DNA from: an uncultured Verrucomicrobiae bacterium
GTDB taxonomy: Bacteria > Verrucomicrobiota > Verrucomicrobiia > Chthoniobacterales > Terrimicrobiaceae
Reading direction: 5' to 3'
DNA length: 64,000 nucleotides
Assembly (NCBI GenBank): GCA_963706955.1
Contig: CAVPOC010000001.1
Coordinates: 64,001-128,000, forward strand
The position numbers and the translations under genes were made by a program. Positions 42,942-62,252 of this stretch are shown one piece after another (position 1 is the stretch's first letter; every line of letters begins with the position of its first letter). The notes beneath the pieces were generated by a model, which saw nothing but the letters and a program-made list of their open reading frames with translations, was not told the origin of the DNA and searched no databases.

Positions 42942-43910
42942 TCAACGCATCGGCGCAGAGGGATGTCGATGGAAGGCCGCTCTGATTGCCGGTTCAGCTC
43001 CGGAGCGTCGGCCGAGATTGGCAACCGCCATACGGCAGAGGCCGATAAACGTTTGCTCTGGCTTCCGAAGTTCACGATTGCCTTGGTGAATGACCGCCCA
43101 TTGCCGCACGATTTTGGAACGTGGTGTCGGCCGCATGATCAGCGAACCTTCGGAGAGTTCCTTCTCGGCCACCCAGGGTGCCATCAGCGCGACGCCAAGC
43201 CCAAGCTTTGCCAGTTGCTTCATGATCTCGAAACTCGGAATTTCAACGTAAGAGGAGAGTCCCACGCCGCTGCGGAGAAAGAAATCCTCCGCCCTTCGAA
43301 AGGTGATACTCTTGCGGTGGTAAAGCAGAAAGTGCTCCTTCGTCAGATCCGTCGTCGTGACCGCGTCCTTCTCCGCCCACGGATGCAATGGAGAGAACAG
43401 GAGATAGAGACGGTCGCGGAAAAGCGGGTGCGCCTTGAGCCCTGCGGGCAGCTTGTCCTCAACAACCACGGCGAGGTCTGCCCGCCCCTCTTCAATTTTG
43501 CTGACCGCCGTTGGGCTGTCTTCAAGACCGACAATAATTGAGACCGTTGGATACGATTCTCGGAACTCCCTCAAAATCGGTGCGAGGACGATCTGCGCCA
43601 TGGCAGTGCTGAAAATTACCGTTAGCTTCGCATGGAACTCCCTGCGGCTGGAGACTGACTCGGTCGCGCGATCGAGGCTGTCGAGAATGCGAAGAACCTG
43701 TCCGAGAAAATGCCGCCCCTCCGGGGTAAGGTGGGTAGTTTTGCCTTTCTTGTAGACCAGGCTGCAACCGAGTTGTTCTTCCAGTCGCCGCATGCCGTGG
43801 CTGATCGCAGATTGCGTTAGGTTGAGCAGAGCTGCCGTTCTGGTGAAACTCCCTACCTGGGCGAGAGTAGCAAAGACCCGCAGCAAGCGAAGGTCGATTT
43901 CTGCCGCCAT
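42942..43910 (-). CDS. LysR-family transcriptional regulator
   Basis: LRLLRVF......GSFTRTA..LNLTQSAIS HTH, LTPEG, substrate-binding domain with LGLGVAL. Confidence 0.95.
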   Translation of the reverse strand: MAAEIDLRLLRVFATLAQVGSFTRTAALLNLTQSAISHGMRRLEEQLGCSLVYKKGKTTHLTPEGRHFLGQVLRILDSLDRATESVSSRREFHAKLTVIFSTAMAQIVLAPILREFRESYPTVSIIVGLEDSPTAVSKIEEGRADLAVVVEDKLPAGLKAHPLFRDRLYLLFSPLHPWAEKDAVTTTDLTKEHFLLYHRKSITFRRAEDFFLRSGVGLSSYVEIPSFEIMKQLAKLGLGVALMAPWVAEKELSEGSLIMRPTPRSKIVRQWAVIHQGNRELRKPEQTFIGLCRMAVANLGRRSGAEPAIRAAFHRHPSAPMR

Positions 43911-43912
43911 AC

Positions 43913-43958
43913 ATGCACTCTATTCATCATTATCCTGAAAAACAATCACTGTGTTCAT
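43913..43958. promoter_or_regulatory. LysR T-N11-A box(es) in the divergent promoter
   Basis: ATGCA-CTCTA-TTCAT at 43913-43927 and a weaker AATCA-CTGTG-TTCAT at 43944-43958. Confidence 0.55.
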
Positions 43959-44004
43959 GGGAAATTTCCGTGCATCGCGCGCTCTGGCGGACTACCTCAT
44001 CGCG

Positions 44005-45084
44005 ATGGCATCACGAGGTCGATCGGCACGCAGGTCACCAGGCCGATTGGTCGGAGCCTTCCGGCTTGGTTACGTCCCGCTGGTTGACGCCGCGCCCTTG
44101 CTGGTGGCGGAAGCGCTAGGTCTCTTTGCCGATCGAGGCCTGACCGTAGAGCTGAGTGCCGAGCTCGGCTGGGGATCGATTCGCGAAAAACTGGTCTACG
44201 GCGAGTTGGACGTCGCTCATGCTCCGGGTCCCCTTGTCTTTTCGATCCTCTTGGGCACGGATTCGAAGGCGTGCCCGGTGAGCACCGACTTTGTGCTCAG
44301 CTTGCAGGGCAACGCGATAACATTATCACGCCGTTTCTGGGACCGTGGCGTTCGCGACGTCCCTACTTTTCAAGCAATGGTGCGAAACGAAGCACCTCAC
44401 AAACCGGCTTTTGCCGTGGTGGCACGTTTTTCGAGTCATCATTTCTTGTTGCGCAGGTGGTTACGGAGCACGGGCCTAGACCCAGATCGCGATGTCCGTA
44501 TGGTCGTTTTGCCGCCGCCCCTGGTTGCCGAGCATCTAAAGGAGGGGCAGATCGACGGGTTCTGTGCGGGCGAGCCGTGGAACTCTGCGGCGGCGCTTTC
44601 CGGAGAGGGTTGGGTGGTTGCAACGAGCCTTTCACTCGCTCCGCGGCATCCTGAGAAGGTCCTGCTCGTCCGCGACGAACTGATTTTTCGTCAGCCGGAA
44701 GCCTATGGCATCTTGCGAACGGCGATGACGGAAGCCTGTCGTTTCTGTGATCAAAGTGAGAACCGCCGGAGTGTGGCGGACATTCTTCACGAGGCACGCA
44801 TCTTTCCTGTCTCGAAAGAAGTTCTGATGAACTCGCTCGTCGGACCGTTCCACACGGGTGTTGCCGATTTGGGTTCGGCAGAGCCATTTCTCGTCTTTTA
44901 TAGGGATGGCGCGAACGAAGCGACGGAGGAGCGTGCCAAATGGTGCCTGGAGGCCGTCTTGGAGACCGGCGCCTTAAAGGCCGACAGTCGAACTCGTAAA
45001 CTTTGCCTGGAGGCATTCCTCGACAAGCGCGAGCGGAGCCTTCCGCCGTCCGCGCGGACTACCCCGCATTCGACTGCTAAGTAA
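44005..45084 (+). CDS. Cytoplasmic CmpA/NrtA-family protein, NasS-like nitrate/nitrite sensor
   Basis: LGYVPLVDAAPL, GNAITLS, LPPP, DGFCAGEPWN, HPEKVL; no signal peptide. Confidence 0.8.
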   Translation: MASRGRSARRSPGRLVGAFRLGYVPLVDAAPLLVAEALGLFADRGLTVELSAELGWGSIREKLVYGELDVAHAPGPLVFSILLGTDSKACPVSTDFVLSLQGNAITLSRRFWDRGVRDVPTFQAMVRNEAPHKPAFAVVARFSSHHFLLRRWLRSTGLDPDRDVRMVVLPPPLVAEHLKEGQIDGFCAGEPWNSAAALSGEGWVVATSLSLAPRHPEKVLLVRDELIFRQPEAYGILRTAMTEACRFCDQSENRRSVADILHEARIFPVSKEVLMNSLVGPFHTGVADLGSAEPFLVFYRDGANEATEERAKWCLEAVLETGALKADSRTRKLCLEAFLDKRERSLPPSARTTPHSTAK

Positions 45085-45110: not shown

Positions 45111-45126
45111 AGGCACGAAACGTGCT
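45111..45126 (+). promoter_or_regulatory. Putative sigma-54 (-24/-12) promoter of the nrt-nir-nas operon
   Basis: AGGCACG-AAAC-GTGCT, i.e. GG-N10-GC spacing. Confidence 0.55.
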
Positions 45127-45339: not shown

Positions 45340-46659
45340 ATGGATAAAGACAGGAATCGGGAACTCTCCACGAGTCGCGGCACGTTGAGGGTCGAGGGAC
45401 ACTCGGGCATCACGCGGCGTCGATTTCTGTCGGGATCGGCCAAGGGAATTGGCCTGTCGGCCTTACTGAGTGGACTGCCGACCGGGTGGGTCGGCTCCGT
45501 GTTTGCAAGCGATGCCCCGGAAACGTCGGACCTTAAGATTGGCATCATTGCGTTAACAGATTGTTCAACCATCGTCATCGCGCATGAGAAGGGCCTCTTC
45601 AAAAAGTATGGGATCAGTTCGGTGGTGAGCAAGGGAGCCAGCTGGGCAGCCATTAGGGATGCCCTCTCCAACGGCGATATCCAAGCGACGCACATGTTGT
45701 TAGGCATGCCGATCGCTTCGACGATGGGGCTGGCCGGATCACCAAAGAAGCCGATGATCGTTCCATGGCTGCTAAACCGCAACGGGCAAGCCATCACGTT
45801 ATCAAACAAGTATAAGGGGAAAATCACCGAGGATCCGGCAACGCTCAAGCCGTTCGTTGACGAAGCGAAGGCCAGCGGGATGCCACTTTCGTTTGCCATG
45901 ACCTTTCCGCCGGGGACGCACGCGATGTGGATACGCTATTTTCTCGGCGCAGGTGGGATAAACCCGGATGCCGACGTCGCCCTCATTACCGTTCCACCGC
46001 CGCAGATGGTTGCCAATATGAAGATCGGCAAGATGGATGGGTTCTGTGTGGGCGAACCATGGAACGCTCGCGCGATCGCGGACGATGTTGGTTTTACCGG
46101 CATCACCACCCAGGCAATCTGGAAAGACCATCCTGAGAAGGTCTGCGCGTTCACGGCAGAGTTTGCGGACGCCAATCCAAAAACCATCAAAGCCGTGGTG
46201 AAGGCGTTGCACGAAGCGAGCGTTTGGGCAGACGATTTGAACAACCGGCCGGAATTGGCGAGGATCGTAGCCTCTCCCACCTACATCAATTGCCCGGAAG
46301 ACGTTATTCTAAGCCGCCTCCAGGGGAAATACATCATGGGTGACGGCCGCAAATTTCGCGATCCCAACTACATGATTTTTAGTGAGCGCAACTGCAACTA
46401 TCCGCAACCGAAATACGCCAAGTGGTGGCTGACGCAGTTTCGTCGTTGGGGGTTCGTTGAAGCAGCCCCCGACTACGAAGGCATATCTAAGCAGGTGATG
46501 CGGGCAGACATCTATGAAGAGGCGATGAAGGAGCTTGGCTATTCTCATGCGGGCCTTAGCGATGCGTCGGAAACGCTCTTCGACAACGTTCCGTTTGATC
46601 CCAAAGGCGACCTGGAAGCCTATGCTAAGAGCTTTTCCGTTCATAACCTAAAGGGTTAA
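45340..46659 (+). CDS. nrtA: Nitrate/nitrite ABC substrate-binding protein, Tat-exported
   Basis: TRRRFL twin-arginine signal plus h-region; IALTDC, NRNGQAIT, FAMTFPPGTH, DGFCVGEPWN, HPEK. Confidence 0.9.
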   Translation: MDKDRNRELSTSRGTLRVEGHSGITRRRFLSGSAKGIGLSALLSGLPTGWVGSVFASDAPETSDLKIGIIALTDCSTIVIAHEKGLFKKYGISSVVSKGASWAAIRDALSNGDIQATHMLLGMPIASTMGLAGSPKKPMIVPWLLNRNGQAITLSNKYKGKITEDPATLKPFVDEAKASGMPLSFAMTFPPGTHAMWIRYFLGAGGINPDADVALITVPPPQMVANMKIGKMDGFCVGEPWNARAIADDVGFTGITTQAIWKDHPEKVCAFTAEFADANPKTIKAVVKALHEASVWADDLNNRPELARIVASPTYINCPEDVILSRLQGKYIMGDGRKFRDPNYMIFSERNCNYPQPKYAKWWLTQFRRWGFVEAAPDYEGISKQVMRADIYEEAMKELGYSHAGLSDASETLFDNVPFDPKGDLEAYAKSFSVHNLKG

Positions 46660-46661
46660 AG

Positions 46662-47978
46662 ATGGCGGACCTCGCTCATCCCCAGGGAAGCGGACACAGG
46701 TCCGATAAGCCGGTTTCCCTTCGTTCGACGGAGCTTTTGGCCCGACGCGGCGAAGCTCTCGACCTTTCCCGGCTGCTTGCACGAAGTCGCTCGCCTCAGC
46801 TGTCGGTAGCTGGCGATCCCGAACTCGAGCACCTCACGTTCGGAATTCTCCCGTTGACCGATTGCGCCCCCATTGTCATCGCGCATGAAAGGAAGTTGTT
46901 CGAACGGTCGGGCATCACCTCAAGCGTGGCCAAATTTGGGAGCTGGACAGCCAGCCGGGATGAGCTCTTAAGCGGAAGAGCGCACGCAGCGCAGATGCTC
47001 TTCGGCATGCCTGTCGCCGCGGCCGTCGGCAAACTCGGCACGGAGCATAGACCGCTCGTTATTCCCTGGATCCTTAATCGGAACGGCCAGGCGGTCACCA
47101 TATCGGTCAGACACTCTCGGCGGGTAAGTTCAAGCGCCCGCGACCTTCGCGCCTTCGCGCAGGAGTGTCGCGAGAAGGGTCGGCCGATGGTCTTTGCCAT
47201 GACGCTTCAACCGGGGACGCACGCTATGTGGCTTCGCTATTGGCTCGCGTCCGGAGGCATCAATCCGGATACCGATGTTGCTCTGATCACGATCCCCCCG
47301 CCCATGATGGTCGCGAACATGCGGGCGGGGCGGCTTGACGGATTTTGCGCGGGCGAACCATGGAATGTGAGGGCCATCGAGGAGGAACTTGGTTTTACGG
47401 CGGTGCTCAGCGAGGAAATCTGGCCCGATCATCCCGAAAAGGTCCTCGCGTTCACGGAGGATTTTTCCGAGGCCTACCCGAATTCGGTGAAGGCAGCTCT
47501 CAAAGCCCTCCACGAAGCTTCCCTCTGGTGCGACGAGGAAAGTAACCGCGATGAGTTGGCAGCAATTCTCGAGCAACCCCAATACCTTGCTTGTCCTGCC
47601 AAAACCATCAAGTCACGCCTGGGCCCGGTGGTCGACTGGGCGGGCGGTCGCACCGCGCAGAATCTGCGCGGTTTGACGTTCTCTCGTCGCGAATGCAACT
47701 ATCCACAGCCGAAATTTGCCGTCTGGTGGTTGTCGCAATTTCGCCGCTGGGGCATGCTGCCCGCCGCGCCTGATTATCTCGGGGTGGCCACGCGCGTGAT
47801 GCGCCCCGATTTTTACGAGGCTGCCATGAACGAGCTGGGCGTCCCACATGGGCGGCCGGAATTTACTTCCGAAACCCTCTTCGATGGCAAGGTTTTCGAT
47901 CCGGCGCAGCCGGAGAAATACGCCGCAGAATTCGAGATTACCGCTCTCAAGCGAAAGCCGGCACTCCATGAATCATGA
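46662..47978 (+). CDS. Second NrtA-like protein without a recognisable export signal
   Basis: Closely parallels 45340 (LPLTDC, NRNGQAVT, PGTHAMW, GEPWN, HPEK, NYPQPK..WWL.QFRRWG) but has a hydrophilic N-terminus. Confidence 0.85.
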   Translation: MADLAHPQGSGHRSDKPVSLRSTELLARRGEALDLSRLLARSRSPQLSVAGDPELEHLTFGILPLTDCAPIVIAHERKLFERSGITSSVAKFGSWTASRDELLSGRAHAAQMLFGMPVAAAVGKLGTEHRPLVIPWILNRNGQAVTISVRHSRRVSSSARDLRAFAQECREKGRPMVFAMTLQPGTHAMWLRYWLASGGINPDTDVALITIPPPMMVANMRAGRLDGFCAGEPWNVRAIEEELGFTAVLSEEIWPDHPEKVLAFTEDFSEAYPNSVKAALKALHEASLWCDEESNRDELAAILEQPQYLACPAKTIKSRLGPVVDWAGGRTAQNLRGLTFSRRECNYPQPKFAVWWLSQFRRWGMLPAAPDYLGVATRVMRPDFYEAAMNELGVPHGRPEFTSETLFDGKVFDPAQPEKYAAEFEITALKRKPALHES

Positions 47979-48859
47979 AAGAATCAATCCTTAAGAAAAT
48001 TGATTGGCTGATCCTCCCGGCGATCGGCATCGCCGTTTGCATCCTGCTTTGGAACTTGATTGCCGGCAAGGAAGTGAGGAAGGAAGCCCTGGATGACTTT
48101 GGGGACAAGGTGGTCAAGGTCCAGCGGGTTGGAGTTTCCGCGGACCTTCCCTCGCCAGCCGAAACGTGGATGAAGAGCAAGCCCTACATCCTTGAGCCGT
48201 TCGCCAAGCGCGGCGAGTTGGATCAGGGGATTCTAAGCTTTACGTGGCTCTCCTTGAAATTGGTCGCGCAAGGCTACGTCATCGCTCTGCTTGTCGGCAC
48301 GCCGATCGGATTCTTGCTGGGTCTTTCCAGGACCTTCGCGAAAATGTTCGACCCGATCTTCCAAGTGCTTCGTCCGGTCTCCCCTTTGGCATGGCTGCCG
48401 CTTGGGATGGTGCTCTTTCTTGGCGCGAAGCTAACGATTCCCGGGGTTGGCCTCAGTTACTCGGCCTCGGACCTCGCCGCCATTTTCACGATTGCGATCT
48501 GTTCGATGTGGCCAACGGTTCTAAATACCGCGGTGGGCGTCCGCGCAATTCCTCAGGATTACCTTAACGTTGCCAAAGTCCTTAAACTCTCGAGGACCAA
48601 GACGCTTTTCAAGGTCCTCTTGCCGGCCACATTGCCGTACATGTTTACGGGATTTCGCCTTTCCCTGGGGATCGCCTGGCTCGTCATCGTGGCTGCGGAA
48701 ATGCTCACGGGGAAGCCGGGAGTCGGCGGCTTTCTCTGGCAGCAGTACAATGCCCTAAGCTATGCCCACATTATCTTGTGCATCCTCACGATCGGCATCG
48801 TCGGCTTCGTGCTCGACCGGTTAATGAGCATGGTCGAAGCGCAGTTTAAGACCGCTTGA
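47975..48859 (+). CDS. nrtB: Nitrate ABC permease
   Basis: DPIFQVLRPVSPLAWLP, NTAVGV, EAA-like loop, GIAWLVIVAAEMLTG. Confidence 0.93.
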   Translation: MKESILKKIDWLILPAIGIAVCILLWNLIAGKEVRKEALDDFGDKVVKVQRVGVSADLPSPAETWMKSKPYILEPFAKRGELDQGILSFTWLSLKLVAQGYVIALLVGTPIGFLLGLSRTFAKMFDPIFQVLRPVSPLAWLPLGMVLFLGAKLTIPGVGLSYSASDLAAIFTIAICSMWPTVLNTAVGVRAIPQDYLNVAKVLKLSRTKTLFKVLLPATLPYMFTGFRLSLGIAWLVIVAAEMLTGKPGVGGFLWQQYNALSYAHIILCILTIGIVGFVLDRLMSMVEAQFKTA

Positions 48860-48863
48860 GATC

Positions 48864-49781
48864 ATGACCGTGCTCGAAGTTAAGAACGTCTCCAAGGGGT
48901 TTGGTCCAAAGGGCAAGCGCACCGAGGTGCTCGAAGACATTACCCTTCAAGTCGAACGGGGGGAATTTCTCGCAATCATCGGCTATTCCGGCGCCGGCAA
49001 AACGACGCTGATGTCCCTGCTGGCCGGCTTGATCAAGCCAGACACCGGTTCGATCAAGTTGCACGGCAAACCGATGGAAGGACCTGGGCCAGACCGTGGG
49101 ATAGTTTTTCAAAACTACTCGCTGCTCCCGTGGCTGACCGTCTATGACAACATTGCGCTGGCGGTGGACCAGGTTTTCTCCAACTGGTCCGCTGAGCGAC
49201 GCCGTCAGCACATCGAAAAGCAAATTGCCACGGTGAAGCTGACCCCGGCGCGCGACAAGATCCCTCGCGAACTCTCCGGCGGAATGCGCCAACGAGTATC
49301 CGTGGCACGGGCGCTCTCCCTCCAGCCCGAGCTGCTTTTGCTTGATGAACCGCTCAGCGCTCTGGATGCGCTCACCCGCGCTAATCTGCAGGATGAAATC
49401 AACCGGATTTGCCAGGAAGAGAGGAAGACGGTCATTCTGATCACCAATGATCCCGATGAAGCCATCCTTCTGGCGGATCGGGTCATTCCGCTGACCGCCG
49501 GACCGCGCGCCACCCTCGGACCTTCCATCCCCGTAACCATCCCCCGTCCGCGCTCGCGCAGGCTGATCAACGAGAGCTACGATTTCAAACAGACGCGCAA
49601 TGAGGTGATCGAGTACCTTCTCATGGCCACCGATAAGCGCAAGGTCGCTATAAGTAAGAAGCTTATCTTGCCGGATCTTTTGCCTGAGGACCTCACCGAG
49701 CCGCGCTCGATCTTTGGCAGAAAACGCCGACCGCGCAGGCGCAGTGAGCAGAAGCGCGAGACGGTCGAGGTGGCCGTATGA
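48864..49781 (+). CDS. nrtC: Nitrate ABC ATP-binding protein (no C-terminal NrtA-like domain)
   Basis: [39 protein letters not shown]. Confidence 0.88.
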
Positions 49782-50642
49782 GTGATCGGGCTTATCTCGA
49801 ACTGTGGGATCTTACCAAGAGCTATCCCACCCGACAGGGTGAGGCGGTGATCGTTAAGAACATTAGCTTCAAATTCCGCAAGGGAGAGTTCGTTACGATT
49901 ATCGGCCACTCCGGTTGCGGCAAATCAACGATCCTAATGATGGTGGCCGGACTAAGCACGGTGACTTCCGGCGGCATCGTTCTGGCGGGGAAGGAGCTCA
50001 ACGGGCCTGGTCCTGACCGCGGTGTTGTTTTCCAGTCGCCTTCGCTTCTTCCATGGATGAGCGCCTTCGAAAACGTCATGCTCGGGGTAGATCAGGTATT
50101 CCACACGGCCGAACGTCACGAGCGGCGACTTATCGGCGAATACTACCTGACTCTCGTCGGACTCGCCGACTCGATGCATAAGCTTCCCGCAGAGCTTTCC
50201 CAAGGCATGCGCCAGCGGGTGGGCATCGCGCGTGCCTTTGCCCTTGCTCCGAAAATGTTGTTGCTCGACGAGCCATTTGGAATGCTCGATTCCCTCACGC
50301 GATATGAGCCTTCAGGAAGTTCTGATCAGTCTTTGGCGTCGAGAGCGGATTACGGCCATGATGGTCACCCACGATGTCGATGAAGCGCTCTTTCTCAGCG
50401 ACCGGATCGTTTGCATGACCGATGGGCCAGCGGCCGGTATTGGCGAGATCGTGGAAGTCGATTTCCCCCGACCTCGCTTTCGCAAGGAAGTGATGGAGCA
50501 TCCCGATTATTACAAGCTTCGCGCACAGCTCATCGAATTTCTCGAGCTTCGCGCGCATCGTCCGTCTGGAGGGGTTGCCCCACCCGGTGTTGAGAGGAGC
50601 CCGGAGTCGAAACAAGAGCAGCGCGCGATTGCGATGACCTAG
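49778..50642 (+). CDS. nrtD: Nitrate ABC ATP-binding protein (frameshift near 50310)
   Basis: [30 protein letters not shown], then in a shifted frame LQEVL...[14 protein letters not shown]. Confidence 0.88.
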
Positions 50643-50659
50643 CATCTGAGTCTCACGCG

Positions 50660-52304
50660 ATGACTAAGATACCTGTGATTCCCGAAACGGCACCATTCGA
50701 TGCCATGCAGCGCATGTGGCTGAACGGCTTTCTCGCGGGTCTGTTCAGCTCAGAGCCCACCGCGATCGCGGTGTCGGCGGCCACCTCGTCGTCGCTGGGT
50801 CCATTGCTCTTTTTGTTCGGCTCTCAAACGGGAACTTCCGAGGGACTCGCACGACGCTTCGCGAAGGAAGCCAAGAAGGTGGGCTTTGAGACGCGCGTCA
50901 TCGGAATGGAGAGCTATTCGACCGATCGATCTTACTAAGGAAAAGCGTCTGATCATCATCACAAGCACCTACGGAGATGGGGAGATGCCCGATAATGCGC
51001 AAACCTTTTGGGACTATCTAAAGAACGGGACCGCTCCGCGCCTTGAGCATCTGGAATTTTCGGTCCTGGCCCTCGGCGATCGCAACTACTCTCAATTCTG
51101 TCAGGCAGGCAAGGCCTTCGACGCGCGGCTTGAGGATTTGGGAGCCAAGCGGATCCATCCTCGCACCGATTGTGACGTGGATTGCGAGGGTCCTTCAGTG
51201 GAGTGGTTCAACGGTTTACTCAGGTCGTTGGAGGGTGCTGTCCCTTCTGCGGGGACGAGTCAAAACGCCGTCACTTCCACCTCAACGGTTGAGAGCACGC
51301 CTTCCTTTGGCAAGGCCAACCCATTCCTTGCGGTTCTGAAGACGAATCGCGTTTTGAATGCCCCAGGTTCTGCAAAGGAGACGCGGCACCTCGAGATCAT
51401 CCTCGAAGGTTCCGGACTCGAGTATGAGGTCGGCGATGCCTTGGGAGTCGTGCCGACCAACTGTCCGGATTTTGTCCGCGAGATCTTAGACGCTGCCGGT
51501 CTTGACGGTGAGGAGGCCGTGAAGGCCCCCGATAACGAGGAGATGCCTTTACGGATGGCCCTGTTACGAAAGTTTGACCTGAAGTCCTTTTTGGCCGATC
51601 TGCCGGCAAAGGCTGCCTCAGCGGCGGATTTTGCGGCGCCGTTGCGAAAGCTGCAGCCGCGTCTCTATTCGATTTCCTCAAGCTCGAAAGCCCATCCGGG
51701 AGAAGTGCATCTCACCGTGGCCGTCGTCCGCTATGAATTGAATGGTCGTGCTCGCAAGGGCGTCTGCTCGACGTTCTTTGCCGATCGGGTCGGAGCGGAC
51801 ACTAAGGTCCCTGTATTCGTGCACCGGTCGCCGAGCTTCAAACTTCCCGCCGATGGATCCAGGCCCATCATCATGGTGGGCCCCGGCACGGGCGTTGCTC
51901 CATTCAGGGCCTTTCTCGAGGAGCGCCGGGCAGTCGCCGCGACCGGAAGGAACTGGCTTTTCTTCGGAGATCAGAAAGCTCTCTGCGACTTTCTCTATCG
52001 TGAGCAGCTCGAGGCGATGAAGCAGGATGGACTACTGACGAGGCTCGACACCGCCTTCTCCCGCGATCAACCAGAGAAGATCTATGTTCAAGATCGGATG
52101 ATCGAAAACGCTGGTGAGATCTGGTCGTGGCTGCAGGAAGGAGGATACTTCTATGTCTGCGGCGATGCTCAGCGCATGGCTAAGGACGTCGATGCCGCGC
52201 TCCACAAGATCGCCGAAACGGCCGGTCAGCTCTCAACGAACAGGCCGGGGAGTATCGTCAAGCAACTTAAGTTTGAGAAGAGATATTTGCGTGATGTGTA
52301 TTAG
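50660..52304 (+). CDS. CysJ-like NADPH diflavin (FMN/FAD) reductase (frameshift near 50922)
   Basis: Flavodoxin GSQTGT and STYGDGEMPDNA; RLYSISS, GVCS, GPGTGVAPFR, AFSRDQ.EKIYVQ, YVCGDA..MAKDV, RYLRDVY. Confidence 0.9.
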
Positions 52305-52379
52305 AAAACAAAGCCAGGCTGGCCTGTTGTTGGGGACGTGTGCGCTCCCTCACGTGCTCTTTATGCCATGTGAGAATCG

Positions 52380-54120
52380 ATGACGATTACGCCGATCAAA
52401 GAGATTGCGGGGAAACCATTGAACGAGGAGCAGACGACTTATCTGACGGGCTTCTTCGCAGGGATGGCGCAGCGTGCGGTCGTCTTTGCCGATTTCCTCT
52501 CCGAAGCTAAGGGCGCGGCAAACTCTTCCTAAAGCCCCAGGGGAGAAAACAGTGAGGAGGAAGTCCAGCTCACCGCGGAGGAGCGCATTAAGAATGAGGA
52601 ACACCCTCTCGATTCTTACTATCGCCTCCTCGAAAATGCGAGAAGCAACCAGGCGCCGGACAAGGAGGAAACTTATCGATTCAAATGGAATGGCCTTTTT
52701 TATCTCTCTCCTGTGAAGGACGCCTTCATGGCGCGCCTTCGAATTCCGGGAGGGATCGTGAAAACGTATCAGCTTCGCGGCCTTGCCCAGACAGCAAAGG
52801 ATCTGACGAGCGGTTACTGCCAGATTACCACGCGCGCAAACTTCCAGATGCGTCTGATTCAGCCCAAGGATGCCCCCGAAGTGCTTAGACGCATCCAAGC
52901 CGTTGGACTTCATACCCGCGGCACCGGAGCTGACAATATCAGAAACCTGACGTCGAACCCGACGGCCGGAATCGATCCGCAAGAGCTAATCGATTGCACC
53001 CCCTATGTGCGCGAACTCGCAGACTTCATCCTTTCGCATCGCGAATTCTATAATCTGCCGCGCAAGTTCAACATTGCGTTCGACGGAGGAGGGTTGATCG
53101 GGTCGGTTGAGGATACGAACGACATCGGTGTGAAGGCCGTCAAGGTCGAAGACGATGTTTTCTTCCGCGTTGCCCTTGGAGGGGCGACCGGCCACAAGTC
53201 GTTTGCGCGTGATCTCGGCGTGATCGTGCCACCGCAGGAGATTGTCAAGGTAGTCATCGCCATTGTTCGCGTCTATGTGAGGAACGGCAATCGCGGAGAT
53301 CGAAAGAAGGCGCGCCTTAAGCATCTTCTCGATAAATGGACCATGGAGGAATACCTCGCGCGAGACGGAGAAAGTCCTCGGCGGCCAGCTTAAGCCGCAG
53401 TCCCTTCGACCCGAGGGCGATTGTCTACCCTGGCGCTGAATTGCCGCATAGCCATATCGGTGCTTACCCTCAGAAACAAACGGGTCTGCACTATCTCGGT
53501 GTGGCATTGCCGGCGGGACAGATTACGCCCGCGCAGATGTTTCGCGATTGCCGATCTGGCGGATAACTACGCCTCCGCCGAGATCCGGCTGACCGTCTGG
53601 CAGAACTTTATCATTCCAAACATTCCCGAGGCCTATGTCGAAACTGTCAAGAAAGCAGTCCGCAAGATGGGCTTTGACTATCAGCAATCGAATATTGCCA
53701 GCGGCGTCATCGCGTGCACGGGCAACAAGTATTGCAAGTTTTCCTCCACAGATACCAAAGGACATGCCTTAGCTTTGATCAAATATCTCGAGAAGCGGAT
53801 CAAACTCGATCAGCCGGTGAATATCCATTTTACCGGCTGTCCGAACTCATGCGCCCAACACTATATGGGGGACATCGGGATGTTGGGAGCGAAAACCCGA
53901 GACGGTCGAGAGGCGTATCATGTCTTTGTTGGCGGAGGATTTGGGACGAACGCGGCGTGCGGGAGACAGATTTACCAAGCCCTGCCGTTCGACGAATTGA
54001 ACGGTGCTGTGGAAAAGATTCTCCTCGCTTACCTCAAGCACCGCCAGGGCTACCGAGTCATTTCAGTCCTTTACGATGCGACACGATGTAAACTCTCTGC
54101 AAGTGCTTTTCCAGGAATGA
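52380..54120 (+). CDS. nirA: Siroheme/[4Fe-4S] nitrite reductase of the NirA family (in-frame TAA at 52530 and about 4 frameshifts)
   Basis: [51 protein letters not shown]...TGCPNSC; ends LFQE* overlapping the next ATG. Confidence 0.88.
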
Positions 54121-55725
54121 CCGGACTTAGCCTTGAAGTTAATCTCATTGATGAACTTCTTGCCGAGCAACAACGGCTCACGCCTGTTGAACGCTTCGCG
54201 AAAAGGCACGATCGTGCAGATTTTCCTGCTCAGGCGCACTACTATCGCGATTTAATCCCCTCCTCGCTGCCTGCACGGCGGCAACAATACGCGTTTGCCG
54301 TCGATCTCGACGTCTGCTCCGGCTGCAAGGCTTGTGTCAGTGCTTGCCATTCGCTGAATGGACTTGAGGAGGACGAAACCTGGCGCGACGTCGGACTGAT
54401 TACCGGCTCCGAAGCCGGAAAGCCGTATCTGCAGACGGTCACCACGGCTTGCCATCATTGCCTTGAACCCGCCTGCCTCGAGGGTTGCCCGGTTCTCGCT
54501 TACGATAAGCATCCCGAAACCGGAATTGTGCGCCATCTCGATGACCAATGTATCGGCTGCCAATACTGCACCATGAAGTGCCCCTACGACGTGCCGAAGT
54601 ATTCGCACCGTCTCGGGATCGTCAGGAAGTGCGACATGTGCACGGATCGTCTGGCTAGTCGGTGAGGCTCCCGCTTGTGTGCAGGCTTGCCCGCACGAAG
54701 CGATCGCCATTCGGCTGGTGGATGTTGCCGAAATCAACGCAGCGGCGTCGGCGGGCGCGCAGATCGTTCCGGGCGCATTTGATTCCGGCTATACCAAACC
54801 GACGACGAAGTATTTCTCGAAGAGAGGAATTCCGAAGAATGCCGAACCCGCCGACGCACATGCGCTGCGTCTGGAACACCCCCACTGGCCATTGATTATC
54901 ATGCTTCTCTTCTCGCAGCTCGCCGTGGGTATGTTTGTCACGAGTGCAGTCGATGGCGATGGTGAGTGGATCGTCGTCACTGTCCTGTGGCTTTGGCAGC
55001 GACAATCGGGTTTGCTACGCTTAACGCCGGGCTGGGTGCATCGGTTTTTCACCTGGGACGGCCGCTCGGCGCCTGGAGGTTTTTCCTTGGCCTGCGGACA
55101 TCATGGATGAGCCGGGAGATTCTGGCATTTGCAATTTTTGCGGCCGTCGCATTTCTTGGCACCGCGCTTTGCTGGATTGCTCCGGCCAGCGCTCTACGCC
55201 CGAGCCGGGCTGGCCGGCGCAGCCGCTGGTCGGCCTCCTGGCGGTCTTTACTTCGGTAATGATCTACGCGGATACACGCCGCGCGTGGTGGGCGCTAACT
55301 TCGACTGCGGCGAGATTCTACGGTGCGACCGTTATCCTGGGCTTAACCGCGGTCGCTGCGGTCTTGAGTCCGATCGCGGCGTCTGAGGCGGCGTTTCGCG
55401 TCGCTATGGCTCTCTCGATCGCGGCGCGGACAATATTTTTCGTCTGGGAAACACTAAGCAGCGTGCGAGCCGTGGCGGATCCTTCCAGTCCGATTCACCG
55501 CTCCGAGAAAACGATCCGCACGCTGCTGCCGTGGTTTGGTCGCGTCCGCGTGACCGTATTTGTTCTAGGAACACTTGTTTCCGTGGATGGCGCTCATCAC
55601 GAGCGCACCGGTGGCAATCGCTGCCGCAGGTCTGGCGCTGGCGCTTTCAGTGCTCGGTCATGTGCGTCGAGCGCTTCGGATTTTTTACAGCTGTGACGGC
55701 CCCCCGCATGCCCGGAGGCGTATGA
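54117..55725 (+). CDS. Fused 4x[4Fe-4S] ferredoxin (DmsB-like) and DmsC/NrfD-type membrane anchor (at least 5 frameshifts)
   Basis: [47 protein letters not shown]; then [28 protein letters not shown] and TM segments; ends RMPGGV*. Confidence 0.82.
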
Positions 55726-57984
55726 CGCAACTCAGGGAAAAAAGGGATAGCGTTGCGCGATTGGAACCGCTGCGTGAAGCGTTTGCCCTTCGAGCTTGGA
55801 ACGGACCTTTAACCGAAGAACTCATCCGCAACCCTGGTAAATTTGGGCTTGGGCAGGTGCCGGCACGACTGGCGCCGGATGCGACCACGACGATGGTCTG
55901 TGGCTTCTGTTCGACTGGCTGCGGCCTTAATATTCATATGCGCAACGGACAGGCGATCAACCTAAGTGCGGACAGCAGCTACCCAGTCAATCTGGGAATG
56001 GCCTGTCCCAAGGGATGGGAGGCGCTCACCCCACTGTCCGCTCCCGATCGCGGCACCACCCCAATGGTCCGGGCGGTCCGCGGCGGTCCCCTTGAAGCGT
56101 GCGATTGGGAGCGCGCCCTGATCTTGTTCTGCGAGCGATTCAAAGAGCTTCGGCGCAACTATGGTCCGGAGTCGGTTGCTTTCCTGAGCACAGGACAGAT
56201 CACTACTGAGGAGATGGCCTTCCTCGGATGTCTGTTCAAGTTCGGCATGGGATTTGTGCACTGTGACAGTAACACCCGCCAGTGCATGGCCACATCGCAT
56301 GTCGCCTACAAAGAGTCCTTCGGCTTCGACGCGCCGCCCTTTACCTATGCGGATTTTGAACTCTCGGATGTGTTGGTCTTTGTCGGGGCGAATCCGTGTC
56401 TTGCTCATCCCATCATGTGGCAGCGCGTCATGCGCAATCCGAAAAAGCCTGAAATTCTCGTGGTCGATCCTCGCACCACCGAAACTTCGATGGCGGCGAC
56501 GCAGCACTTTTCCATTCGGCCGAAGTCGGACCTGGTGCTGCTTTACGGTCTTGCGAATCTGCTGATCGCCAGCGATTCGATCGACCGCCCTTTCATTGAT
56601 GCGCACACTTCCGGCTTCGAAGAATTTGCTCGCTTTGTCAGCGCGTTCACCCCGGAGCGTGTCGCTCGGGAAACCGAACTGAGTGTCGCCCAGTTGGAGC
56701 GATTTGCCCGAACAATTGGACAGGGACAGGCCGTCTCCTTTTGGTGGACGATGGGAGTGAATCAGGGCCACGAATCGACGCGGACGGCGCAGGCGATCAT
56801 CAATCTGGCGCTAATGACGGGCAACATCGGCCGCCCTGGAACTGGTGCAAATTCGATTACCGGGCAGTGTAATGCGATGGGCTCGCGGCTGTTCGCAAAC
56901 ATCACCAGCCTTCTCGGTGGCCACAACGTGGACGAAGAGATGCACCGCCGTAAGATCTCGAGAGTATTGGGAATTCGAGAAGAAGCTATCCCTCGTGGCC
57001 CTTCGATGGCCTACGATCAAATCGTGCGAAGCATCGCCGATGGCAGGATCAAAGGTCTCTGGGTCATCGCGACCAACTCATCCCACTCGTGGATCCATCA
57101 AGATGACTTTAACAACCTCATCAACAAACTCGATTTCCTCGTTGTGCAGGACATGTATCCTACCACCGAGACCGCACAGCGAGCGGATCTCTACTTTCCG
57201 GCAGCGGGCTGGGGCGAAAAGGAAGGCACCTTGATCAACTCCGAGCGCCGAATCGGACTCGTCAAGAAAGTGCGACGCGCGCCGGGGCGGGCACTTTCCG
57301 ATTTCCATATTTGCCAGTTGATCGCGCACTATTGGGGATGTGAGGGGATGTTTGCACGGTGGACTTCGCCCGAAGCTGTCTTTCAAACCTTGAAAGCAGT
57401 TTCTGAAGGGATGCCCAACGATATCACTGGCGTCCGCGACTATGGCATGATCGATGAATGTGGCGGCATCCAATGGCCGCTCAGCGATGCCGATGTCTCT
57501 CGATTTGCCAGTGCTAAGTTTCAAGTTCCGTCGGAAAGGCGATTGTTCGAGGACGGCAAGTTCTTTACCCCTGATCGTCGGGCACGTTTCGTTTTCGAAC
57601 AACCACGCATGGCACCGGAGCAAGTCGATGCAGAATATCCTTTTCTCCTCATGACCGGACGCGGGACATCGTCGCAGTGGCACACCAACACCCGGACGGG
57701 CAAATCGGATGTGCTGCGCAAGCTTTATCCCCCCAACTGCTATGTGGAAATAAATCCTCACGATGCTGAGAAGTTGGGCATTCGGAAAAACATCCGTCGT
57801 GAGAATCGCATCCCGGCGTGCGCAGGTTCGAGCGACGGCATTTGTGACGCCGACGATCCGACCTGGGCAGCTCTTCATTCCCATGCACTATCGCGAAGCA
57901 AACCGGTTGACCTTTCCGTCCTTTGATCCCTACTCCCGTCAGCCGTCTTACAAGGCATGCGCGGTGCAGGTTGAAGCGATTTGA
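55722..57984 (+). CDS. nasA: Molybdo-bisPGD assimilatory nitrate reductase catalytic subunit (frameshift near 57790)
   Basis: CGFCSTGC...MACPKG, NTRQCM (Mo-ligand Cys), [45 protein letters not shown]; no Tat signal. Confidence 0.9.
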
Positions 57985-58057: not shown

Positions 58058-58624
58058 CTACAAATCGTCAGGGGAGTTCCAGTTGGTAAACAGAGCCGAT
58101 TGCGAATCGGAAATCTCCTTTGCGTTCATCATTCCTGCTTTAAGAGCTTCGTCAATGAGACGCTGAAACGAGCGATCGTTGCCTGCGAGAATCTCTTCGA
58201 CAAGCGGAAGGATTTTGAGCGGGTAGACCGCAGCTGTCCCGCAATAAAATCCCTCATGGAGCGGCACAGTTCCGGCGCATTCAGATTCTTCGATTAATTC
58301 CCGAAGAAAGTTGACCGTTATTCGTGGCATGTCCACGGCCAGCGTCACCAAAAAGCCGGAGGCAGTCTGCCGCAAAGCGGCTTCAAGACCACCAAGAGGC
58401 CCGAGGCCGGCAACCCGATCATGAACGAACGTCCACGGTCCTGGTGGGAATTCCATACCCGACTGCACTGAGAAGAAGAGCTGATCCGGACCGAGTTTGG
58501 CCAACTTGTCGATCTGAAAGCGCCACATTGGCATGCCTTCATACTCGATCGAAGCCTTGTTAGTTCCCATGCGACTCGATCGGCCACCGGCGAGCAAGAC
58601 AGCGGCGAATTTTTCATGGTTCAT
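58058..58624 (-). CDS. mobA: Molybdenum cofactor guanylyltransferase
   Basis: LLAGGRSSRMG.NKA, GPLGG, AVDMP, NWNSPDD. Confidence 0.9.
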   Translation of the reverse strand: MNHEKFAAVLLAGGRSSRMGTNKASIEYEGMPMWRFQIDKLAKLGPDQLFFSVQSGMEFPPGPWTFVHDRVAGLGPLGGLEAALRQTASGFLVTLAVDMPRITVNFLRELIEESECAGTVPLHEGFYCGTAAVYPLKILPLVEEILAGNDRSFQRLIDEALKAGMMNAKEISDSQSALFTNWNSPDDL

Positions 58625-59087
58625 CGACCTTGAGGATTCCATCGGTGAGGATTCTCGCGCGGAGGCCGCCGCGCCCTTTCATGGCGGCTTCCGCGCCTTC
58701 GCAAAAGGCCTGATTCATCCAGGAACAGGGCGCAGATTCCTGCGTTCCTTCAAAGAACACTCCTTGAACCTCGAACTCTTTACCAATCCAGAAGTTTAGA
58801 TCAATGCCACGCGTTATAACATTACGGCGGAAGGCGCCGGGATTTTTGTCTGTGACCCCGAAGCGACGGCAGAGATCCACATACGTCTCCCACGCGAAAA
58901 AGGTGATCTGGCCCTTGTAATCGTTCTTATGGTCGAAATAACGATCGCCGACGAGTCCCTTGCCAGCAATGCACTCGACCTGAGCCACCGAAACGCTAGG
59001 ATGCTCGCCCGCGGGAAGACCGTAATGTCCGACAAAATTGTGAGCCGGCGAAATATAGATGGCGGCAATTTGCACGTGTGAAGCCAT
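58614..59087 (-). CDS. MOSC-domain protein
   Basis: GLVGDRYF, QITFF, FRRNVI..GIDL, SAPCSWM, GRGGLRARIL..G. Confidence 0.85.
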   Translation of the reverse strand: MASHVQIAAIYISPAHNFVGHYGLPAGEHPSVSVAQVECIAGKGLVGDRYFDHKNDYKGQITFFAWETYVDLCRRFGVTDKNPGAFRRNVITRGIDLNFWIGKEFEVQGVFFEGTQESAPCSWMNQAFCEGAEAAMKGRGGLRARILTDGILKVDEP

Positions 59088-59279
59088 GCTAAAAAAACTA
59101 TTTGATTCTCGGCAAACTGCGCCGTTTTTCTTGAGAAGTTGTTCGAGCTTGTCCTTGGTTCCTCTGCGAACTCCTTGTCCGCTCTTCTGAAGCACCTTCA
59201 GCTCCAGCGACTTTAGACCGGACGGGGATTCTTTGAACTTTACGGGAGTGGGCTTAGAGCGAAAATTGCACTGCATTCG

Positions 59280-60431
59280 ATGAAACGTCCAGAGGCCGGC
59301 AACTTCCCACGGCGAGATCCTGAGAGGCAGACCTTCGCCGGCCTTATCGTCCGCGAACGAAATCCAGAGAACCTCGAGTTTCCTTTTTCTACCCTAAATA
59401 GTTTTCTCACTTCCAAGGAACAGTTCTTCGTTCGCAGTCACTTCGGAGTTCCGAAACTGGAGCTGGACGCTTGGCGACTCGTGATCGAGGGACGGGTGGA
59501 GGAGCCGTATGAGATCGGCTTCGATGAATTGCTTCGGATGCCATCGCGCACCGTGACGATGACCTTAGAATGTGCGGGCAACAGCCGGATTTTTCTTTCA
59601 CCGAAGGTAGGAGGGGTGCAGTGGGAACTTGGTGCGGTCAGCACTGCAGAGTGGACCGGCGTGCCGCTCGCAGCTATGCTCAAACGAGCTGGAGTCAAAG
59701 CGGGAGCGACGGAGGTCGTGCTCGAAGGCGCGGACAATGGTGCTATCGCGAAGGAACCTGTATCGCCGGGGAAAATCCACTATGCGCGCAGCCTTCCACT
59801 GGCCAAGGCGCTGATGCCCGAAGTGATTCTCGCCTACCGCATGAACAGCGAGCCTTTGCCGCCTTCGCACGGTTTTCCGCTGCGCGCGATTGTGCCTGGA
59901 TGGTATGGAATGGCATCAGTCAAATGGTTGACGCGCGTCGTTGTCACGGATGGTACTTTCCGCGGCTACTTTCAAACTTCAGATTACTCCTTCTGGGAGC
60001 AGCGTGACGAACTGCCCATCCAATTGCTGCCCGTGAGCGAGGTTGAAGTGAAGGCTGAAGTCGCCCGGCCTGCCTTGCACGAAATCATCGGGGCCGACAC
60101 GATCTACCGGGTTTATGGCGCGGCATGGACGGGAGAGTCTGAGATAAGCAGAGTGGAGATGAGCACTGATGGAGGAAACCGTTGGGAAGAGGCGCAACTG
60201 TTAGGTGAATCAGTGCCATATGCCTGGCGTTTTTGGGAGTATTATTGGCGGACGCCAGGACAAGCTGGAATCTACACGCTGATGGCGCGCGCGACGGATG
60301 CACGCGGTAACGTGCAGGCCATGCAACGCGACGCTCATCGTGGATCATACATGATCAGCCATGTGCAGCCGATCGAGGTCGAGGTTCGAAAGCTCTCTGC
60401 ATTACCCTCAACCGACAGCTACGCAATATGA
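59280..60431 (+). CDS. Sulfite-oxidase-family molybdoenzyme, no export signal and no heme domain
   Basis: FFVRSH, LECAGN.R, WTGVPL, MN.EPL...HGFPLR..VPGWYG..SVKWL, C-terminal dimerisation domain. Confidence 0.9.
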   Translation: MKRPEAGNFPRRDPERQTFAGLIVRERNPENLEFPFSTLNSFLTSKEQFFVRSHFGVPKLELDAWRLVIEGRVEEPYEIGFDELLRMPSRTVTMTLECAGNSRIFLSPKVGGVQWELGAVSTAEWTGVPLAAMLKRAGVKAGATEVVLEGADNGAIAKEPVSPGKIHYARSLPLAKALMPEVILAYRMNSEPLPPSHGFPLRAIVPGWYGMASVKWLTRVVVTDGTFRGYFQTSDYSFWEQRDELPIQLLPVSEVEVKAEVARPALHEIIGADTIYRVYGAAWTGESEISRVEMSTDGGNRWEEAQLLGESVPYAWRFWEYYWRTPGQAGIYTLMARATDARGNVQAMQRDAHRGSYMISHVQPIEVEVRKLSALPSTDSYAI

Positions 60432-60624
60432 GGATGAGCCGTGCAGGGTTTGATCGGTCTGACAAGAGCATAAGCGAGGTGAAACCTGGCGACCGTCTCC
60501 AAACGTAAAAAAGGTGCTCTTGATTGGAGGGAAATGTCTGCGTTCGACGAACACGCAAAAAAATTTGCCGGCGGTAGCATGAAAAGGGCAGCGAGCCTTC
60601 GATGTCGACGGGAGAGATCATAGG

Positions 60625-61896
60625 ATGGCACATTTTGGACTGATTTGTCCCGAATTGAGCGGGCATCTCAATCCAATGACGACGCTGGGTCGTGAACTCA
60701 AGCGGCGTGGGCACCGTGTGACACTCATTGGTCGACCGGATGCGCAGAAGAAGACCGAAACCGCCGGCCTTGAATTTGCCGTCGTCGGCGAAAAGGAGTT
60801 CCCTGCGGGTTCGCTGGTTCAGACCACGGCAAAGCTCGGACGTTTGGCCGGATTGAATGCGATTCGATTTACAGCCGAGTTGCTGCGGCGCGCCGCAGTC
60901 ACAGTCTTGGATCAGGCGCCGGACGCCGTTAGGACTGCAGGTGTCGACGCATTGCTGGTGGATCAGGTCACCCCTGCCGGAGAGACGGTCGCGGAGATGC
61001 TGCATTTGCCATTTGTTTCGGTTTGCAATGCGCTGGCGCTAAATCCGGACCGAGCTCTTCCCCCAGCAGTGACACCGTGGCGTTACCGTCGAGGCACAAT
61101 CTGGCGCTGGCGCAATGCGCTTGGCGATTCGATTCTGCGGATAGCCGCCCGACCGATCATTCGCGAGATCAACGCGCGGCGTGTCCGACACGGGCTATCA
61201 GAAATGGCAGTGCGGATCTCGGATGGTGTGGGGTCGGCGCAAATCGCCCAGCAGCCAGCCTTTTTCGACTACCCGCGTGAGCGTCTGCCAAACAACTTCC
61301 ATTACACAGGTCCCTGGCACGCGCTTGAGTCCGGCGATAAAATGGAGTTCCCGTGGGAGAAATTAGACGACCGCCCATTAATATACGCTTCGATGGGAAC
61401 TCTGCAGAACCGACAAGCGCCCATCTTTCAGGCGATCGCTTCCGCCTGCGCAGGGCTAAACGCGCAGCTCGTTTTGTCACTGGGAAGCCACGATCAACGC
61501 ATCGACCTAAAATTGGCAGGCGCGGCCATTGTCGTCCCGTTCGCTCCGCAACTTGAGTTGCTGGGACGTGCCGCGCTAACGATTACGCACGCCGGACTGA
61601 ACACCGCCCTCGAGTCTTTGGCCCAAGGTGTGCCGATGGTGGCTATTCCCATTACAAATGACCAACCGGGAGTCGCCAGTCGTCTCGAATGGCTGGGTGT
61701 TGCCAGGATCGTGCCGCCAGCGCGGCTGACTGCCCATCGTTTGCGTGCCAGCGTGAGGACCGTTCTCGATGAGCCTTACTACCGTGCACGGGCTCGGCAA
61801 TGGAAGTTGACTCTCGCCAGCATTGAGGGCCTTCGACTTGCCGCCGATATCGTCGAGCGTGCCATCAAGAGCGGGCAACCCGTGCGGCGGCCGTAA
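60625..61896 (+). CDS. GT1 UDP-glycosyltransferase (MGT/CrtX-like)
   Basis: HFGLICP..GHLNP, YASMGT, FAPQLELL, ITHAGLNT.LE, PMV.IP..NDQP. Confidence 0.9.
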   Translation: MAHFGLICPELSGHLNPMTTLGRELKRRGHRVTLIGRPDAQKKTETAGLEFAVVGEKEFPAGSLVQTTAKLGRLAGLNAIRFTAELLRRAAVTVLDQAPDAVRTAGVDALLVDQVTPAGETVAEMLHLPFVSVCNALALNPDRALPPAVTPWRYRRGTIWRWRNALGDSILRIAARPIIREINARRVRHGLSEMAVRISDGVGSAQIAQQPAFFDYPRERLPNNFHYTGPWHALESGDKMEFPWEKLDDRPLIYASMGTLQNRQAPIFQAIASACAGLNAQLVLSLGSHDQRIDLKLAGAAIVVPFAPQLELLGRAALTITHAGLNTALESLAQGVPMVAIPITNDQPGVASRLEWLGVARIVPPARLTAHRLRASVRTVLDEPYYRARARQWKLTLASIEGLRLAADIVERAIKSGQPVRRP

Positions 61897-61943
61897 GCCC
61901 GTTGCAATTGGCTTTTTTAGAGGGTATTATCAATGGGCCGACG

Positions 61944-62252
61944 ATGCCAGTTCACCGGGTCGCTTCTACCAACGAATTGCCGCCGGGCAGCGCACTTGCT
62001 GTTGAGGTTGCCGGCAGGACGATCGGTTTGTTCAACGTGGATGGTGCGATCTACGCCATCGACAACATTTGCACGCACGATAGCGCGCCCCTGAGCGAAG
62101 GCGTGGTCACCGACGGGTGCGTCGTCTGTCCCTGGCATGGAGCCCAGTTCGACCTCGCTACGGGTCAAGCGCTCACCCCTCCCGCCGTTGAAGACGTCAG
62201 GACCTACGAGGTCGTCGTGTCCGGCGACGATGTCTGCCTGCAAATTGATTAG
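61944..62252 (+). CDS. Rieske-type [2Fe-2S] ferredoxin
   Basis: CTH...CPWHG.QFD..TG; 102 aa. Confidence 0.9.
   Translation: MPVHRVASTNELPPGSALAVEVAGRTIGLFNVDGAIYAIDNICTHDSAPLSEGVVTDGCVVCPWHGAQFDLATGQALTPPAVEDVRTYEVVVSGDDVCLQID

Follow-up and report, generated by a model that had tools for sequence, protein, structure and literature searches.

Textbook assimilatory nitrate reductases draw their electrons from ferredoxin, flavodoxin or NAD(P)H, and electron transfer from menaquinol to nitrate, which is downhill overall, is established from the respiratory enzyme NarGHI. Here, we describe a locus that combines traits of both kinds of system. It lies in a 64,000-nucleotide stretch (the window) of the genome of an uncultured Verrucomicrobiae bacterium (GenBank assembly GCA_963706955.1, contig CAVPOC010000001.1, positions 64,001 to 128,000) and consists of a gene for a DmsB-DmsC fusion protein, i.e. 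an iron-sulfur (Fe-S) domain with four [4Fe-4S] clusters joined to a membrane anchor, followed by a gene for a molybdenum (Mo) enzyme of the NasA/NapA lineage. Judged from sequences and structure models, the two proteins probably constitute a two-chain, membrane-bound and cytoplasm-facing menaquinol:nitrate oxidoreductase that serves assimilation.

Several described systems resemble this locus in part. According to excerpts of Calisto and Pereira (PMC8076601), SoeABC of Allochromatium and Aquifex combines a Mo subunit without a twin-arginine translocation (Tat) signal, a four-cluster subunit, and a DmsC-family anchor that is expected to be inverted and to have its quinone site on the N-side. 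The locus shows the same plan, with an anchor likewise predicted to be inverted, but its B and C parts form one chain, its Mo subunit belongs to the NasA/NapA lineage, far from SoeA in our tree, and electrons would run from quinol to substrate in a context of nitrogen assimilation. E. coli DmsABC and PsrABC share with it the four-cluster wire and the eight-helix fold of the NrfD family, including equivalents of H65, S82, E87 and R271. In contrast to DmsABC, it has no Tat signal, the opposite predicted orientation, a B-C fusion ahead of the A gene, and a putative nitrate reductase with a Cys ligand instead of DmsA. With NasA, NasC and NarB it has in common a Mo-bis(pyranopterin guanine dinucleotide) (Mo-bisPGD) enzyme, predicted to be cytoplasmic, with one N-terminal [4Fe-4S] cluster, a Cys ligand and no export signal, encoded in an operon with nitrite reductase and transporter genes; it differs by a conserved N-terminal arm, by the four-cluster membrane-anchor partner, and by scores below all NCBIfam Nas cut-offs. 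With NarGHI it would share quinol:nitrate oxidoreduction at a cytoplasmic active site, but it lacks the dihaem cytochrome b anchor and therefore a redox loop, and its catalytic subunit is of another lineage. The missing Tat signal also separates the Mo subunit from NapA. In chemistry the system would be akin to NarGHI, in architecture to SoeABC and in purpose to Nas, and it falls within none of the three as these are defined.

In the literature covered by our search, the gene pair is mentioned once. The excerpted 2020 phylogeny of Wells et al. (PMC7331816) associates no member of the FDH/Nas/Aio/Nap clade with four-cluster or membrane-anchor subunits. Excerpts of Dedysh et al. (2020; PMC6995999) report for Lacipirellula parvula a NapA-like subunit, labelled NapA, together with a protein in which an iron-sulfur subunit is joined to one of NrfD type, with genes beside NarK and NAD(P)H nitrite reductase, in one sentence that gives no topology, distribution or mechanism. 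This layout matches locus L075 of our set and, going by the description rather than by sequence, the L. parvula operon very likely belongs to the same family. A literature search, with subscription journals mostly outside its reach and supplements not covered, found no functional study of this gene pair, and excerpts of PMC4013037, PMC10732223, PMC13608581, PMC11266412 and PMC10609526 hold no description of this module.

Results

A fused four-cluster and membrane-anchor protein

An earlier, sequence-only reading of the window had described four 4Fe-4S motifs followed by a DmsC/NrfD-type membrane domain (HWPL, SxxHLGRP, SWMSRE), encoded by a gene with an ATGA overlap onto a NasA-type gene. All of these elements were recovered: the fusion carries 16 cysteines in four motifs (residues 67-191), matches the Pfam families Fer4_11 and DmsC, and its gene shares the ATGA at 55722-55725 with the Mo gene. 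The 16 cluster cysteines are invariant in 58/58 homologues, the alignment set being the loci in which both the fusion and the Mo protein are complete.

A protein search with the fusion yielded at least 7996 of 8000 candidates at E<=1e-20, the best 120 of which cover 96-100% of the query, and a genome scan confirmed at least 561 of 600 candidate stretches. Most of the 80 loci kept stem from Verrucomicrobiota; the set also includes Planctomycetota and, with two records, Myxococcales. In 74 of the 80, both domains lie in a single frame as judged by a loose motif test (three run off the contig and three fail), and the stop codon of the fusion overlaps the start of the Mo gene in 50, 44 times as ATGA and six times by one base. 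Cultured carriers include Adhaeretor mobilis, Rubritalea profundi, Oceaniferula spumae and Singulisphaera sp.; the plasmid collection searched contained no full-length fusion. A second subfamily of fusion and Mo enzyme, with an NTTLCM motif and another N-terminal arm, was seen at L128:5479-9367, L149:8706-12485, L150:8674-12294 and L151:9013-12944. The pair in L128 is located between a multihaem cytochrome c gene and a gene cluster that we take to be nitrogenase-like.

Extra bases in the assembly

As assembled, the fusion gene contains seven extra single bases (around 54656, 54953, 54982, 55194, 55223, 55584 and 55664) and is spread over three frames, with HWPL (54883), SVFHLGRP (His at 55050) and SWMSRE each in a separate one; in the Mo gene, a single additional base lies near 57793. 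Among the matches listed, short-read contigs from four runs of four studies, 95-99% alike, lack six of the fusion bases (54953, 54982, 55194, 55223, 55584 and 55664), each in at least three of the four runs, and also the base near 57793. The base at 54656 is absent from a 94% identical relative. After removal of the extra bases no stop codon remains and every motif is intact. Corrected in this way from near-identical contigs and homologues, the fusion stays one gene of 533 aa that keeps its 16 cysteines and is 70-77% identical to three intact relatives, and the Mo subunit comprises 753 aa, ending at 57984. The intact relatives and the repaired read-through rule out that dmsB and dmsC are separate genes. 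An apparent joining of NirA to the Fe-S domain (open reading frame 53421-54665) turned out to be an artefact of an extra base near 54052.

The operon might instead be decaying into pseudogenes in this strain while the family is functional elsewhere, and frame switches are indeed denser in the operon (nine in 15 kb, counted in overlapping rows) than in the rest of the genome (seven in 60 kb, with 47 other genes as the baseline). However, all 12 listed indels are single extra bases missing from near-identical contigs, and their removal leaves open frames with intact motifs. Decay is therefore very unlikely in our view, and assembly error is the simpler reading of the frameshifts. Further ones were noted at 38993-40424 (in a presumably TypA/BipA-like gene), 50308 (second ABC ATPase), 50924 (cysJ-like) and 52500-54060 (nirA), so that the assembly holds many single-base errors.

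The catalytic subunit

The Mo subunit shows the domains Molybdop_Fe4S4, Molybdopterin and Molydop_binding, an N-terminal CxxCxxxC cluster motif, Cys-Met at the Mo ligand, GQCNAMG (GQxNAMG) and the funnel Arg; a twin-arginine signal and a C-terminal BFD domain are absent. Its best solved match is Desulfovibrio NapA (E 1.5e-93, TM-score 0.85). Although formate dehydrogenase gives the highest NCBIfam score and is a frequent name in databases, the active-site motifs rule this identity out: the formate dehydrogenases compared have Cys-His at the ligand and GQNNVQG, unlike the Cys-Met and GQCNAMG found here. The subunit remains below the curated cut-offs of the NasA, NasC, NapA and Fdh models, reaching 424 of 1000 bits (NF041323) and 384 of 1100 bits (NF047855) with the Nas models and 328 of 904 and 319 of 930 bits with those for NapA. 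The DmsA model TIGR02166 gave 114 of 777.7 bits, and DmsA is also distant in the tree. In this tree (FastTree, 34 sequences, rooted on DmsA and SoeA, with no characterised NarB or NapA sequence included), all fusion-linked enzymes and one relative lacking the N-terminal arm form one clade (support 1.0) that is sister to long NasA. The fusion-linked enzymes are a clade separate from the curated Nas families and, as far as sequence comparison indicates, would work like Nas.

The lack of C-terminal [2Fe-2S] domains, already remarked upon in the sequence-only reading, extends to the relatives: 57 of 58 Mo subunits end no more than 27 residues past the last motif, which leaves no room for a BFD domain. 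Taken alone this is not unusual, since excerpts of PMC7331816 describe NarB/NasC-size enzymes of about 710 aa. Residues 27-56 at the N-terminus form an arm that is conserved (column identity 0.68 vs 0.74 in the core) and unfolded in the model of the lone subunit (predicted local distance difference test, pLDDT, under 50). This arm may bind the fusion protein.

Membrane domain and candidate quinol site

The model of the membrane domain (mean pLDDT 87.9) contains eight membrane helices and resembles ActC (Z 21.8, root-mean-square deviation (rmsd) 3.2, 277 aligned) and PsrC (Z 20.1, rmsd 4.5, 245 aligned); a related bd-oxidase fold scores similarly (Z 20.6). The domain reaches 59 bits against PF04976 (cut-off 22.3), and a sequence search of solved structures with it gave no match. 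A profile alignment to E. coli DmsC (probability 95.7) equates H312, S329, E334 and R518 with H65, S82, E87 and R271, and all four are invariant in 58/58 homologues. Furthermore, transmembrane helices 1-4, the quinone-side bundle, are more conserved than helices 5-8 (0.54 vs 0.38). In the excerpts of Calisto and Pereira (PMC8076601), His65 and Ser82 are assigned to the quinone site and Arg271 to an ion path, replacement of His65 abolishes quinol oxidation in DmsC, and the quinone site is located on the side of the peripheral subunit, with SoeC expected to be inverted.

Predicted orientation

Loop charges were counted with helix borders from the structure model. Lysine plus arginine residues average 14.7 on the Fe-S side vs 1.6 on the opposite side, and 58/58 homologues lean to the Fe-S side; the read-through from the window has 14 vs 0 and four second-subfamily fusions have 16-19 vs 0-4. 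Six DmsC/YnfH controls lean the other way (2-6 vs 6-9), whereas two presumed SoeC-type controls with Tat-less partners show the same bias as the fusion (20-21 vs 1-2), a further likeness to SoeABC. By the positive-inside rule, the positively charged side is cytoplasmic. Therefore, the ferredoxin domain with its clusters, the quinol site and the docked Mo enzyme are predicted to face the cytoplasm.

The export signals agree with this orientation. A Tat-like motif was found in none of 71 Mo-subunit N-termini, in keeping with the earlier claim of a subunit without a twin-arginine signal, and in none of 79 fusion N-termini; all five DmsA-type control subunits examined have twin arginines. The accompanying statement that DmsBC modules normally serve Tat-exported enzymes thus holds for these five controls but needs qualification, as SoeABC offers a cytoplasm-facing precedent (excerpts of PMC8076601). 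A periplasmic orientation of the complex, as in DmsABC or NapA, with export through an unrecognised signal, is extremely improbable: the closest solved relative is NapA and TatC is present in the genome, but neither chain has a Tat-like motif, the charge bias is opposite to that of DmsC in all 58 homologues, and a nitrate import system would be needless for this step.

At L152:9442-12833 (minus strand), a DmsB-DmsC fusion of 445 aa with an inverted bias (13 vs 1) adjoins an unrelated Tat-less Mo enzyme, so that inverted B-C fusions seem to serve other enzymes too.

Pairing of the two genes across genomes

Among 151 evenly drawn genomes of the host phylum, the fusion and Mo enzymes of the clade (>1000 bits) occur in the same 12, ten of which have an adjacent pair. 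One of the other two, G109, has a second-subfamily pair and an armless Mo enzyme about 12 kb away. Two genomes of the phylum without the fusion have a NasA of about 1180 aa, and the one scanned carries its own FAD and BFD domains. The phylum of Adhaeretor (151 genomes) contains 11 first- and three second-subfamily fusions, each adjoining its Mo enzyme, and all 14 Mo enzymes above 700 bits adjoin a fusion; a fifteenth fusion lies beside an unrelated Mo enzyme. At L127:7835-9961 (minus strand), an armless Mo enzyme of the main clade without an adjacent fusion stands beside Nrt/MFS genes, a truncated NirB-like flavoprotein and a multihaem cytochrome. As a natural control, this enzyme could help to show what the arm does.

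Operon context and electron supply

The operon of the window encodes, in this order, an ABC transporter, a CysJ-like flavoprotein, NirA, the fusion and the Mo enzyme, and is followed by convergent mobA and MOSC genes (Table 1). Neighbourhoods were counted in the 43 loci of at least 20 kb. A nitrite reductase is present in 40 of them (33 with NirA and a CysJ-like protein, five with NirB, two with NirA alone), and an ABC or MFS transporter in 39; two of the three loci without a nearby nitrite reductase retain transporters. Three second-subfamily loci also carry NirB or NirA. NirA and a CysJ-like NADPH diflavin protein, a pair reminiscent of sulfite reductase, occur together at 50639-54120 of the window and in 33 of the 43 loci.

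These counts bear on the electron donor. The fusion might merely anchor and wire the enzyme, with a soluble low-potential donor (CysJ-like, NirB or ferredoxin) feeding the Fe-S domain and little or no work done at the quinol site. Ferredoxin or flavodoxin serves as donor to enzymes of NarB size that lack C-terminal clusters. Moreover, 38/43 loci encode a CysJ-like or NirB protein, and an armless clade member has no adjacent fusion. NasA-CysJ fusions occur elsewhere (excerpts of PMC4013037). On the other hand, the His, Ser and Glu of the quinol site are invariant throughout the alignment and the quinone-side bundle is the better conserved one, and the soluble partner varies by locus (CysJ, NirB or none) with the fusion constant; the CysJ-like protein is missing from ten of the 43 loci, in which the fusion is still present. 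A soluble donor is rather unlikely on this evidence, and menaquinol is the donor that we favour. The genome contains two futalosine-pathway matches and NuoH.

The same quinol-fed enzyme could also serve mainly redox balancing or nitrate respiration at low oxygen, as Nap or Nar do, in which case ammonium would be a by-product. Quinol:nitrate chemistry is that established for NarGHI, the genome has no NarG over the cut-off, and L. parvula was positive for nitrate reduction, which the authors discuss under anaerobic respiration (excerpts of PMC6995999). However, ABC uptake, NirA or NirB, the NasS-like gene and the sigma-54-like site speak for control by nitrogen supply, and transporters persist in two of the three loci without nitrite reductase. 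Such a role is quite unlikely compared with the assimilatory one that we prefer. Concerning the promoter, a strict sigma-54 pattern occurs at chance level, and a looser pattern, for which there was no shuffle control, lies near the gene start in some loci only. The nrtA leader folds no better than shuffled sequences (z -0.96), and scans for sigma-70 promoters and terminators were uninformative.

Table 1. Positions of the features in the window
Feature	Position	Strand	Remarks
DmsB-DmsC fusion gene: four-[4Fe-4S] domain and DmsC/NrfD-family eight-helix anchor	54117..55725	+	533 aa after read-through
Four-cluster ferredoxin domain	54282..54720	+	16 invariant Cys
Membrane domain, eight predicted helices	54883..55695	+	Candidate quinol-site His (55050), SWMSRE Ser and Glu, Arg of helix 8; predicted N-in (inverted)
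Putative Mo-bisPGD nitrate reductase catalytic subunit, NasA/NapA lineage	55722..57984	+	No Tat signal, no C-terminal [2Fe-2S]
Family-specific N-terminal arm of Mo subunit	55722..55885	+	Candidate fusion-binding arm
NirA-family siroheme nitrite reductase	52380..54120	+	Frameshifted in assembly; ATGA overlap onto fusion gene
CysJ-like NADPH diflavin protein	50639..52304	+	One frameshift; likely donor to NirA
NrtABCD-type ABC uptake system	45340..50642	+	Two NMT1_2 binding-type proteins, permease, two ATPases
Sigma-54-like -24/-12 site upstream of nrtA	45111..45126	+	Similar place in 3/4 closest loci
NMT1_2 gene, presumably NasS/CmpA-like	43951-45084	+	Divergent from regulator gene
Regulator gene, presumably LysR-type	42942-43910	-	
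MobA-like molybdenum cofactor guanylyltransferase and MOSC protein	58058..59276	-	Convergent with operon

Beyond mobA and the MOSC gene, the region 59280-62252 encodes a sulfite-oxidase-family Mo enzyme, a glycosyltransferase and a Rieske ferredoxin. A fusion of PP2C phosphatase and kinase and a porin-like gene of the alginate-export family recur within such nitrate operons of other genomes (L047:4783-6480, L070:6172-7944, L037:3643-5211). The nearest named relatives are Verrucomicrobiae of the Terrimicrobium/Chthoniobacterales kind; the sequence is carried mainly by soil and rhizosphere sequencing runs, and there are no RNA datasets among the runs listed as carrying it.

A second Tat-less module, likewise resembling a nitrate reductase, is found in the same genome at L131:5576-13644 (G000:C6, about 103600-111600). 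Its NasC-like Mo enzyme (854 of 1100 bits) is encoded between a membrane protein of 374 aa without a Pfam family and a 4Fe-4S protein, a Rieske protein and an MFS transporter. A look-alike cluster of the membrane protein has NarI-gamma on 22% of its members, and genes of Crp/Fnr type and flavohaemoglobin-like ones adjoin the module. The module may represent a further nitrate reductase wired to the membrane, and assays in this organism would be confounded by it.

Discussion

In the proposed pathway, nitrate would enter through the ABC transporter. The inverted DmsC domain would take electrons from menaquinol at its His/Ser/Glu site, close to the cytoplasmic side of the membrane, and pass them through the four fused [4Fe-4S] clusters and the cluster of the catalytic subunit to Mo-bisPGD, where nitrate would be reduced to nitrite. 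NirA, fed by the CysJ-like NADPH flavoprotein, would then convert nitrite into ammonium. Because quinol oxidation would set its protons free on the same side on which nitrate reduction takes them up, the enzyme itself would be non-electrogenic, but an upstream complex I could still pump protons.

A membrane-bound nitrate reductase facing the cytoplasm, as suggested in the sequence-only reading, is consistent with the genes fused in relatives, the absence of Tat-like motifs and the predicted topology. We infer that quinol is the donor and that the boundary between assimilation and respiration may be blurred.

Besides the clustering of frame switches in the operon, several points speak against this interpretation. 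The invariant residues of the quinol site could be retained for folding. Redox centres of cyanobacterial NarB lie at about -150 to -190 mV vs -74 mV for menaquinol, and since NarB-like centres are below the potential of menaquinol, uphill hops or a retuning would be needed. Genome G119 carries the fusion and the Mo gene on different contigs, and the clade member L108 has neither the N-terminal arm nor an adjacent fusion, with a second-subfamily fusion about 12 kb off. Finally, the genomes are related and not independent, so that the co-occurrence counts overstate the association and serve as support rather than as statistics.

If the proposal holds, this quinol-fed enzyme would extend assimilatory nitrate reduction by a new donor route and provide, after SoeC, a second case of an inverted NrfD-family anchor. 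Many verrucomicrobial and planctomycete genes named NapA, NarB, DMSO reductase anchor or formate dehydrogenase subunit would then be mislabelled in nitrogen-cycle surveys. More tentatively, and with considerable doubt, the system could stand as a bacterial nitrate reductase of a fourth kind, in which an enzyme of the Nas lineage is attached to an inverted quinol oxidase and assimilation branches off the respiratory chain. In that case, NADH or succinate would feed menaquinone, complex I would still pump protons, and the first step of assimilation would cost neither ferredoxin nor NADPH; it may even yield energy, or become an outlet for electrons under oxygen shortage. With at least two co-inherited subfamilies, in Verrucomicrobiota, Planctomycetota and some Myxococcales, the module would then constitute a nitrate route of major and overlooked importance in soils and seas.

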